A stretch of 41,373 nt of DNA from Thelocarpon superellum. Its lineage: Eukaryota. This document shows positions 23,890 through 25,743 of the stretch, piece by piece. The stretch covers positions 1 through 41,373 of the forward strand of contig JAPEUG010000121.1 of the NCBI GenBank assembly GCA_026025795.1, given 5' to 3'. How positions within the stretch are numbered: the stretch's first letter is position 1; every line of letters begins with the position of its first letter. A program made the translations under genes and the position numbers. A model generated the notes under the pieces. It was not told where the DNA came from, did no database searches, and was given only the letters and a program-made list of their open reading frames with translations.

Positions 23890-25743
23890 TTAATGTTGAC
23901 TCCATTCAATACTGTCCAAATCAATGCCTTCCTGAACCAACTCCCACAGTGGACTCAGCTCCCGTAAAAAGGTCACTCGCTCCTTAACGGCCTTGAGCAC
24001 GTAGTCGATCTCGCTCTCCGTGGTAAAGCGGCCGATGCCGAAGCGGATGCTGCTATGTGCACTCTCGTCGCTGCTGCCCAGCGCTCGCAGCACGTAGCTG
24101 GGTTCGAGCGAGGCCGAGGTGCACGCGCTCCCCGACGAGAGCGCAATGTCCTTCAAGGCCATGAGGAGTGATTCACCCTCGATGTAGGCAAAGGACACAT
24201 TGACGCAACCCGGGTAGAAATGCTTTGGGTCCCCGTTCTGAGTCGTGTGATCGAGTTCAAGGAGACCCGTTAGCAGGCGCCGAGAGAGGGCCGAGATGCG
24301 TTGGTGATCGTACTAGCAGGCCGGGTGCGTTAGCAGCGGTCTTTTTCTTCGGAAGAGATGAGCGATGGTCACGATCCGATTCTCGAGCAACACCGAATCA
24401 GAACCCCTGCTACAACAATCATACCATGGTGGCGCGCATACGACTGAAGACGCAGCGTGTGCCACCACAGTCAGAAAGCCATGCATGTAAAGCAATATAA
24501 TCATATCCGACGAGAAAGGCCGACGCCGACGCGATGGACACGTAAGCTTGCATGGATAGCGCTCACCTTCATCTCTTCCTTGGCGATGCGGCAGGCTTCG
24601 CCAAAGCCCACGACCAGAGGCGGCGCGAGCGTCCCGCTCCGCAAGCCTCGCTCCTGACCTCCCCCGCTGATGATGGGATCGATGCGAACACGCGGCCGTC
24701 GTCGCACGTAGCACGCGCCAATGCCGTTGGGTCCATAGATCTTGTGCGCCGAAATGGACATCAGATCCACATTCCAGGCGTTGACATCGACTGGGATCTT
24801 GCCGACGGCCTGCGCCGCGTCGGTGTGGAAAAAGACCTTCTTGGAACGGCAGAGCGTGCCGATCTCTTCCATGGGTTGAATCACGCCAATCTCGTTGTTG
24901 ACGGTCATGATGCTGACCAGCGCGGTGTCTGGCCGCATGGCCGCTTCCAATTCGGCCATGTCAATCCGGCCATTCGACTGCACGGGCAGATATGTGACCT
25001 CGAAGCCCTCGTCCTGGAGATGGCGACAGCTGTCGAGCACACACTTGTGCTCCGTCTGGCTCGTGATGATGTGCTTCTTCTTTCCTGACCGTCCGAAGAA
25101 TCTCGCCACGCCCTTGATGCTCATGTTGTTGCTCTCCGTCGCGCCGCTCGTGAAGATGATCTCCTTGGCATCGGCCCCGATCAGCTGGGCGACGTTCTCT
25201 CGCGCCGTCTCAATGGCCTTGTCCGTCTCCCAGCCGTAGGCATGTGTGCGCGAGTGCGGATTGCCGTATAGTCCGGTGAAGAAGGGAAGCATGGCATCTA
25301 GCACGCGAGGATCGGTCGGAGTCGTCGCTTGCATGTCGAGATAGATGGGGCGAGATCCTTGGTCGAGGATGGTGGCTTGTTTCAGCACCCCTATCCATCA
25401 TCAGCATCATGAACAGTCTTATTGGGCCGGTAGAGAGGAACGTACCCGCGGAAGGACTCATCATGGCTGCTGCGTCCAAGACGGTCCCCGAGGCGGGAAC
25501 GGACTCGGGCAGTTTTCCGGTCTGCGAGATAAAGGCGTCGTGATCCGCTTTGATGGCAGTATCCACGGACACCTGTGCACTGTCTTTCTTCGACTCCGAC
25601 ACGTAAGATCGAGAGGGTACGACCGCCGTGGGATGGGCGCATCTTCGAATGGCAGCATTTCGTGGTGGCGTTGCCCTGCTCAAGGTCGAGGAGGAATAAA
25701 GGCGTGAGGCCTGACGCATCGCTCGCGGGGCGACAAGCGCCAT
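23890..25743 (-). CDS. NFS1: Mitochondrial cysteine desulfurase
   Basis: Exons 25743-25446, 25390-24567, 24312-23890. Arg/Ser-rich presequence. Motifs [34 protein letters not shown] lysine in SAHKIYGP, catalytic SSGSACTS and C-terminal IEWSQH. Confidence 0.97.
24392..24511 (-). ncRNA. Intronic box C/D snoRNA in NFS1 intron 2, predicted guide for 18S rRNA Cm49
   Basis: Minus strand: box C ATGATTA (24504-24498), guide ACATGCATGGCTT (24488-24476), box D' CTGA (24474-24471), internal stem TGGTGGC..GCCACCA, box C' ATGATT (24422-24417), box D CTGA (24401-24398), terminal stem GTCGGA/TTCGGT. The guide is the exact complement of the conserved 18S sequence AAGCCATGCATGT. Confidence 0.85.

Follow-up and report, generated by a model that had tools for sequence, protein, structure and literature searches.

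An NFS1 intron of Thelocarpon superellum carries a probable counterpart of the Neurospora crassa box C/D snoRNA Nc CD4

The second intron of the NFS1 gene of Thelocarpon superellum contains an element that is very probably an intron-encoded box C/D snoRNA, the counterpart of Neurospora crassa Nc CD4 and a predicted guide for position C49 of 18S rRNA. The window, by which we mean the whole stretch of DNA analysed here, is 41,373 bases long. The element has the anatomy of a box C/D snoRNA, is not the product of random sequence, is conserved in the same intron of related loci, and matches the published snoRNA in target, guide length, guide position and intronic location. From these features we would expect a stable RNA to be expressed in T. 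superellum and C49 to be methylated there.

Host gene and intron

The exons flanking intron 2 match the Pfam family Aminotran_5, and the best NCBIfam model for the host exon is the IscS subfamily of cysteine desulfurases, with a score below the whole-protein cut-off because the query was one exon only. The host is therefore an NFS1-type gene, with the following features:

24567..25375, minus strand: NFS1 exon upstream of intron 2 (reading frame and IscS subfamily match; start at 25375 placed from the AG at 25377-25376)
25445-25376, minus strand: NFS1 intron 1, 70 nt, GT..AG, in frame
24566-24313, minus strand: NFS1 intron 2, 254 nt, GTGAGC...CTAG (delimited by the exon reading frames)
24334-24329, minus strand: GCTAAC branch-site motif
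23890..24312, minus strand: NFS1 exon downstream of intron 2 (reading frame and Aminotran_5 match)

Since intron 1 is only 70 nt long, the 254-nt intron that holds the snoRNA is unusually long for this gene. Within intron 1 (25376-25445, minus strand), the run ATGATGCTGATGATGG resembles C boxes; we take it as a chance resemblance, because no D box accompanies the run and a snoRNA would not fit into an intron of this length.

Anatomy of the element

Within NFS1 intron 2, on the minus strand and thus on the sense strand of its protein-coding host, the element reads C-D'-C'-D in canonical order:

24393..24509, minus strand: predicted box C/D snoRNA, probable Nc CD4 counterpart, sole match of the family profile
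24504-24498, minus strand: C box AUGAUUA (position 6 is U, not G)
24488-24476, minus strand: D' guide, 13 nt, ACATGCATGGCTT as DNA and ACAUGCAUGGCUU as RNA
24474-24471, minus strand: D' box CUGA, with one spacer U between guide and D'
24470-24424, minus strand: hairpin between D' and C', with a 10-bp outer stem
24422-24417, minus strand: C' box AUGAUU, aligning to the UG-containing C' region of relatives
24411-24402, minus strand: element AGCAGGGGUU directly upstream of box D, candidate second guide
24401-24398, minus strand: D box CUGA

Judged as a box C/D RNA, the element has a D box of CUGA and a C box, AUGAUUA, with a single departure (at position 6) and with the critical first GA present. 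Antisense elements of this class have at least 10 nt and end 1-2 nt before D or D'; here the guide has 13 nt, and a single base separates it from D'. The guide ACAUGCAUGGCUU is complementary to the 18S sequence AAGCCAUGCAUGU, as judged from Table 1 of Liu et al. (PMC2780460) and the near-universal 18S segment, and C49 lies opposite the fifth base upstream of D'. The outer stem of the hairpin is formed by 24470-24461 pairing with 24433-24424, by which D' and C' come to lie close to each other. The element measures 107 nt from C box to D box; a mature RNA of some 110-120 nt is therefore probable. From box D there are 68 nt to the branch A and 85 nt to the 3' splice site.

Much of this had been described in a first-pass annotation of the same DNA, which called the intron unusually long and placed in it, at 24392..24511, a box C/D snoRNA with C, D', C' and D in canonical order. 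All four boxes are found in the order it gave, and a profile built without the window delimits nearly the same interval (24393-24509, minus strand). Its placement of box D upstream of the GCTAAC branch site also stands, with the spacing of about 65 nt becoming 68 nt on a recount to the branch A.

Chance expectation and folding

Short boxes such as CTGA and TGAT are common, and motifs of this size could come together by accident in a long intron. As for the guide, allowing up to one mismatch, the 13-mer occurs once in the 41,373 bases on both strands, against a mean of 0.03 in shuffled sequences, 3 of 100 of which contained a match. The strong hairpin between D' and C' that had been proposed earlier was recovered, with a 10-bp stem, at -24.0 kcal/mol (z -3.8). 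A 146-nt region reached a folding energy of -50.7 kcal/mol (z -2.2), a value matched by 8 of 200 shuffles.

The flanks of the element behave differently. Although a 4-bp UCGG/UCGG terminal stem and a 6-bp outer stem can be drawn in the window, the flank duplex has -8.1 kcal/mol and z +0.13 against shuffled flanks; across the family, its median z is -0.25, with 8 of 39 sequences below -1.5. The terminal stem and the outer TTCTCG/CGAGAA stem of the first-pass annotation were dropped as evidence for this reason, the flanks pairing no better than their shuffles.

Conservation in the same NFS1 intron

We scanned metagenome contigs with the pattern TGATNA, 3-15 bases, the 13-nt guide, one base and CTGA, which returned 58 loci. 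The host at each locus was checked by tblastn with the 150 and 135 residues that flank the window intron. NFS1 exons were found on at least one side in 51 of the 58 loci and on both sides in 49, with 67-91% amino acid identity to the window; at these 51 loci the element sits between exons at the same NFS1 intron position, so that the comparison of orthologous introns that had been proposed at the outset came out in favour of a conserved element. Where both exons are present (49 loci), the orthologous introns measure 180-271 nt, with a median of 201. The seven loci without NFS1 exons are L009, L015, L031, L032, L036, L044 and L046.

Conservation of the C box, the guide and D' among these loci is not evidence, because the search pattern demanded them; we therefore looked to features outside the pattern. 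After five loci of clearly different build had been dropped (L009, L015, L032, L044 and L046), the remaining 53 loci and the window gave 39 unique sequences of 71-109 nt. All 39 have a D box of the form [C/A]UGA, which the pattern did not require, and the free base of TGATNA is only ever G or T. In 51 cases box D is followed by the 3' splice site at 62-96 nt (85 nt in the window; L008, L031 and L036 are not among them). The hairpin between D' and C' has a median z of -2.0 in the family, with 26 of the 39 sequences below -1.5, and is at least as stable as -5 kcal/mol in 32 of the 39. The surrounding intron sequence, by comparison, is unalignable among relatives.

A sequence-only profile (R1) built from the 38 metagenomic relatives, with the window excluded, found a single match in the window, at 24393-24509 on the minus strand (39 bits, E=1.3e-11). 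An origin of the window element by chance, to which the terminal stems and the commonness of short boxes might have pointed, is effectively refuted by this match, by the rarity of the 13-mer and by conservation at 51 NFS1 loci with otherwise unalignable intron flanks, and we give it practically no weight.

Copies of the guide outside NFS1

Two members of the family lie outside NFS1. At L036 (2046-1947, minus strand), a copy with canonical boxes and the usual hairpin is found just downstream of an open reading frame that matches Pfam Bmt2 (E=1.7e-89); Bmt2 is a 25S rRNA adenine-N1 methyltransferase. L031 is likewise a family member without NFS1 exons, and the open reading frames next to it have no Pfam match.

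These copies bear on a further alternative, namely that the conserved sequence is a cis-acting intron element that controls splicing or expression of NFS1, with the box-like motifs being incidental. The strong tie to one NFS1 intron (51 of 58 loci) is what such an element would produce, but it would not explain all four boxes in order, a guide perfectly complementary to 18S rRNA, or family members after the Bmt2 frame (L036) and away from NFS1 exons (L031). The Neurospora member, moreover, accumulates as a stable 81-nt RNA according to Table 1 of Liu et al. (PMC2780460). We consider a cis-acting element very improbable and keep to the box C/D snoRNA.

The same D' guide is also found in units of other build. 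L009, L015 and L032 carry box C/D units outside NFS1, which at L009 stand as two tandem copies 111 nt apart (matches at 209-177 and 98-66, minus strand). On the D side these units have the guide GACAGGATCAACCAG, which is complementary to CTGGTTGATCCTG; we take the latter sequence to be the extreme 5' end of 18S rRNA and part of a universal eukaryote primer, so that both guides of these units would aim at the 5' region of 18S rRNA. A non-fungal eukaryotic origin is probable for the three loci, a hint that a guide for the C49 equivalent is not confined to filamentous ascomycetes. L044 (2034-2001, minus strand) and L046 (555-522, minus strand) hold short box C/D-like units with the same guide in unrelated contexts, measuring 69 and 78 nt, respectively, from C box to D box.

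Variants of the C and D boxes

The C box is UGAUUA in 25 of the 39 unique family sequences, and its two forms combine with the D box as follows:

C UGAUUA with D AUGA: 15 of 39 unique sequences
C UGAUGA with D CUGA: 14 of 39 unique sequences
C UGAUUA with D CUGA: 10 of 39 unique sequences, window included
C UGAUGA with D AUGA: 0 of 39 unique sequences

In the kink-turn, the sixth base of the C box lies opposite the first base of the D box. The three combinations found therefore correspond to the states U-A, G-C and a U.C mismatch, and the window, with UGAUUA and CUGA, has the U.C mismatch in place of the usual G-C pair. Mapped onto a 37-row tree of the NFS1 exons, the C-box position needs at least two changes and the D-box position at least four. 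Such a pattern fits a pairing constraint, without being strong proof of one. The AUGA form of box D is itself a known one: in the survey presented in the main text of Canzler et al. (PMC5824354), 4.2% of fungal box C/D snoRNAs have another base at the first position of box D, in most cases an A.

In the same tree the window sits in a clade of 13 rows (support 93/99). Its 12 clade-mates have canonical boxes and lengths of 77-86 nt, and the window has retained UGAUUA and AGCAGGGGUU as they occur in neighbouring clades.

The published family

Table 1 of Liu et al. 2009 (BMC Genomics 10:515; PMC2780460) lists the Neurospora crassa snoRNA Nc CD4, an intronic RNA of 81 nt on chromosome V that was detected by cDNA cloning and northern blotting. 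It is given there with a D' guide, the target 18S-Cm49 and a match of 13/0, and without a homologue in S. pombe, S. cerevisiae, A. thaliana or H. sapiens. The first-pass annotation had predicted a D' guide for 2'-O-methylation of 18S C49 and had surmised that the family might already be catalogued in Neurospora or Aspergillus. The published entry agrees on both points, with Neurospora as the genus: the target, the 13/0 match, the D' side and the intronic location are those of Nc CD4, and the family has been in print since 2009. Its novelty is therefore low, and the evidence supports a correct but ordinary find that very probably belongs to a family already known.

We infer homology to Nc CD4 from the shared target, guide geometry and intronic location; the sequence and the host gene of Nc CD4, absent from the main text of Liu et al., do not enter the comparison. 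In that main text we found no experimental mapping of Cm49. Primer-extension mapping is described there for CD29, at its U2 and 5.8S sites, and the caption of Figure 3 names CD11 and CD29; as mapping is described for the CD29 sites only, Cm49 appears to be a prediction in that study too.

Reference collections add little. Rfam 15 gave no match at the gathering threshold in the window, none at E<=10 in 24250-24650, and no snoRNA match at E<=0.1 in ten related loci, where only AT-repeat noise was returned. Canzler et al. 2018 (PMC5824354), under whose naming scheme the Nc CD4 family would be CD_4, do not mention the family, C49, CD_4 or NFS1 in their main text. Passages of Table 1 in the A. fumigatus snoRNA catalogue (PMC2377427) name neither an 18S C49 guide nor a cysteine desulfurase host. 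A full-text literature search for Cm49 with 18S returned Liu et al. only, apart from an unrelated 28S-Cm4917; searches for a snoRNA in a fungal cysteine desulfurase intron and for RiboMeth-seq with 18S and snoRNA in filamentous fungi found nothing related or relevant.

The element upstream of box D

The stretch directly upstream of box D has a history of its own. A sequence ending in GGGGUU precedes box D in 15 of the 37 tree rows, and one more row has AGGGUU; these rows span several deep NFS1 clades, which differ in the neighbouring bases. It is missing from 21 of the 37 rows, among them the 12 that share a clade with the window, and at least four changes are needed to place it on the NFS1 exon tree. 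Persistence across deep branches suggests a function, perhaps as a second guide; absence from 21 of the 37 rows means that the element is dispensable in many lineages.

Two readings give this element a larger part. According to one, the RNA is a genuine box C/D snoRNP with a main job other than C49 methylation, either as a chaperone for folding of the 18S 5' domain or with AGCAGGGGUU as the key guide on another RNA. The identity of the D-side element in 15 rows of different sequence surroundings is in keeping with this, as is the lack of a Cm49 mapping in the main text of PMC2780460. The geometry of the D' guide, by contrast, is canonical throughout (13 bp, one spacer base, a perfect CUGA, and C' brought near by the hairpin), the D-side element is lacking in more than half of the rows, the window's nearest relatives among them, and no target for it was found by a text search of the literature or in the window. 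We judge another main job to be unlikely, and retain guidance of C49 methylation as the predicted function.

The other reading is additive: the snoRNA would be a double guide, in which AGCAGGGGUU, identical in several NFS1 lineages that lie far apart, would guide a second 2'-O-methylation not described before. We regard this as a tentative idea that is more doubtful than probable. The complement of AGCAGGGGUU is AACCCCUGCU; a text search of the literature for the element or its complement met unrelated primers only, and occurrences of the complement in the window are not above chance. A possible target is a C-rich run followed by UGC that is presumably present in the conserved internal stem-loop region of U6 snRNA, a region that is methylated in other eukaryotes. 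If U6 were the target, the RNA would be a combined rRNA and snRNA guide, the second function of which would have been lost in the Neurospora-like clade.

Proposed mode of action

The snoRNA would be transcribed within the NFS1 pre-mRNA, freed from the spliced intron and trimmed to ends protected by its core proteins, which would be Snu13, Nop56, Nop58 and the methyltransferase Nop1/fibrillarin. Its 13-nt D' guide is predicted to pair with nucleotides 46-58 of 18S rRNA, where a 2'-O-methyl group would be added to C49, opposite the fifth guide base upstream of D'. The 10-bp hairpin may serve to keep D' and C' together in an internal protein-binding motif. As a link between ribosome modification and NFS1, the choice of host would amount only to the trivial co-transcription of any intronic snoRNA; the host itself is conserved.

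Significance

The value of these results lies mainly in annotation, in that a published, lineage-restricted 18S-Cm49 guide is placed in the T. superellum genome and a family is pointed out that Rfam does not cover. Across many filamentous ascomycetes, the guide has held its place in this one intron of the mitochondrial cysteine desulfurase gene. Our understanding of how box C/D RNAs work is unchanged by the window element. What small interest remains concerns the conserved NFS1 host, the box variant, the enlarged hairpin in this genome and the orphan D-side element; the box variants, with UGAUUA accompanied by AUGA or CUGA and UGAUGA never by AUGA, could be of use in work on kink-turn tolerance.

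Comparison with known systems

Yeast snR74 and human U27, which Liu et al. (PMC2780460, Table 1) name as the homologues of Nc CD21 (18S-Am28), share class and mechanism with the window element; their target likewise lies in the 5' end of 18S rRNA, and their guide is likewise on the D' side. They are aimed at A28, whereas the window guide is aimed at C49. Conservation of their family extends from yeast to human, but for the Cm49 guide no homologue is listed in yeasts, plants or human. The closest known system is Nc CD4 itself. Like it, the window element is an intron-encoded box C/D RNA with a D' guide of 13 bp, no mismatch and 18S-Cm49 as the predicted target, and the 81 nt of Nc CD4 are close to the lengths in the window's NFS1 clade (about 77-86 nt). 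The window copy differs in measuring 107 nt from box to box, because of the 47-nt GC-rich hairpin between D' and C', in having UGAUUA instead of UGAUGA as its C box, and in retaining the conserved AGCAGGGGUU before box D.
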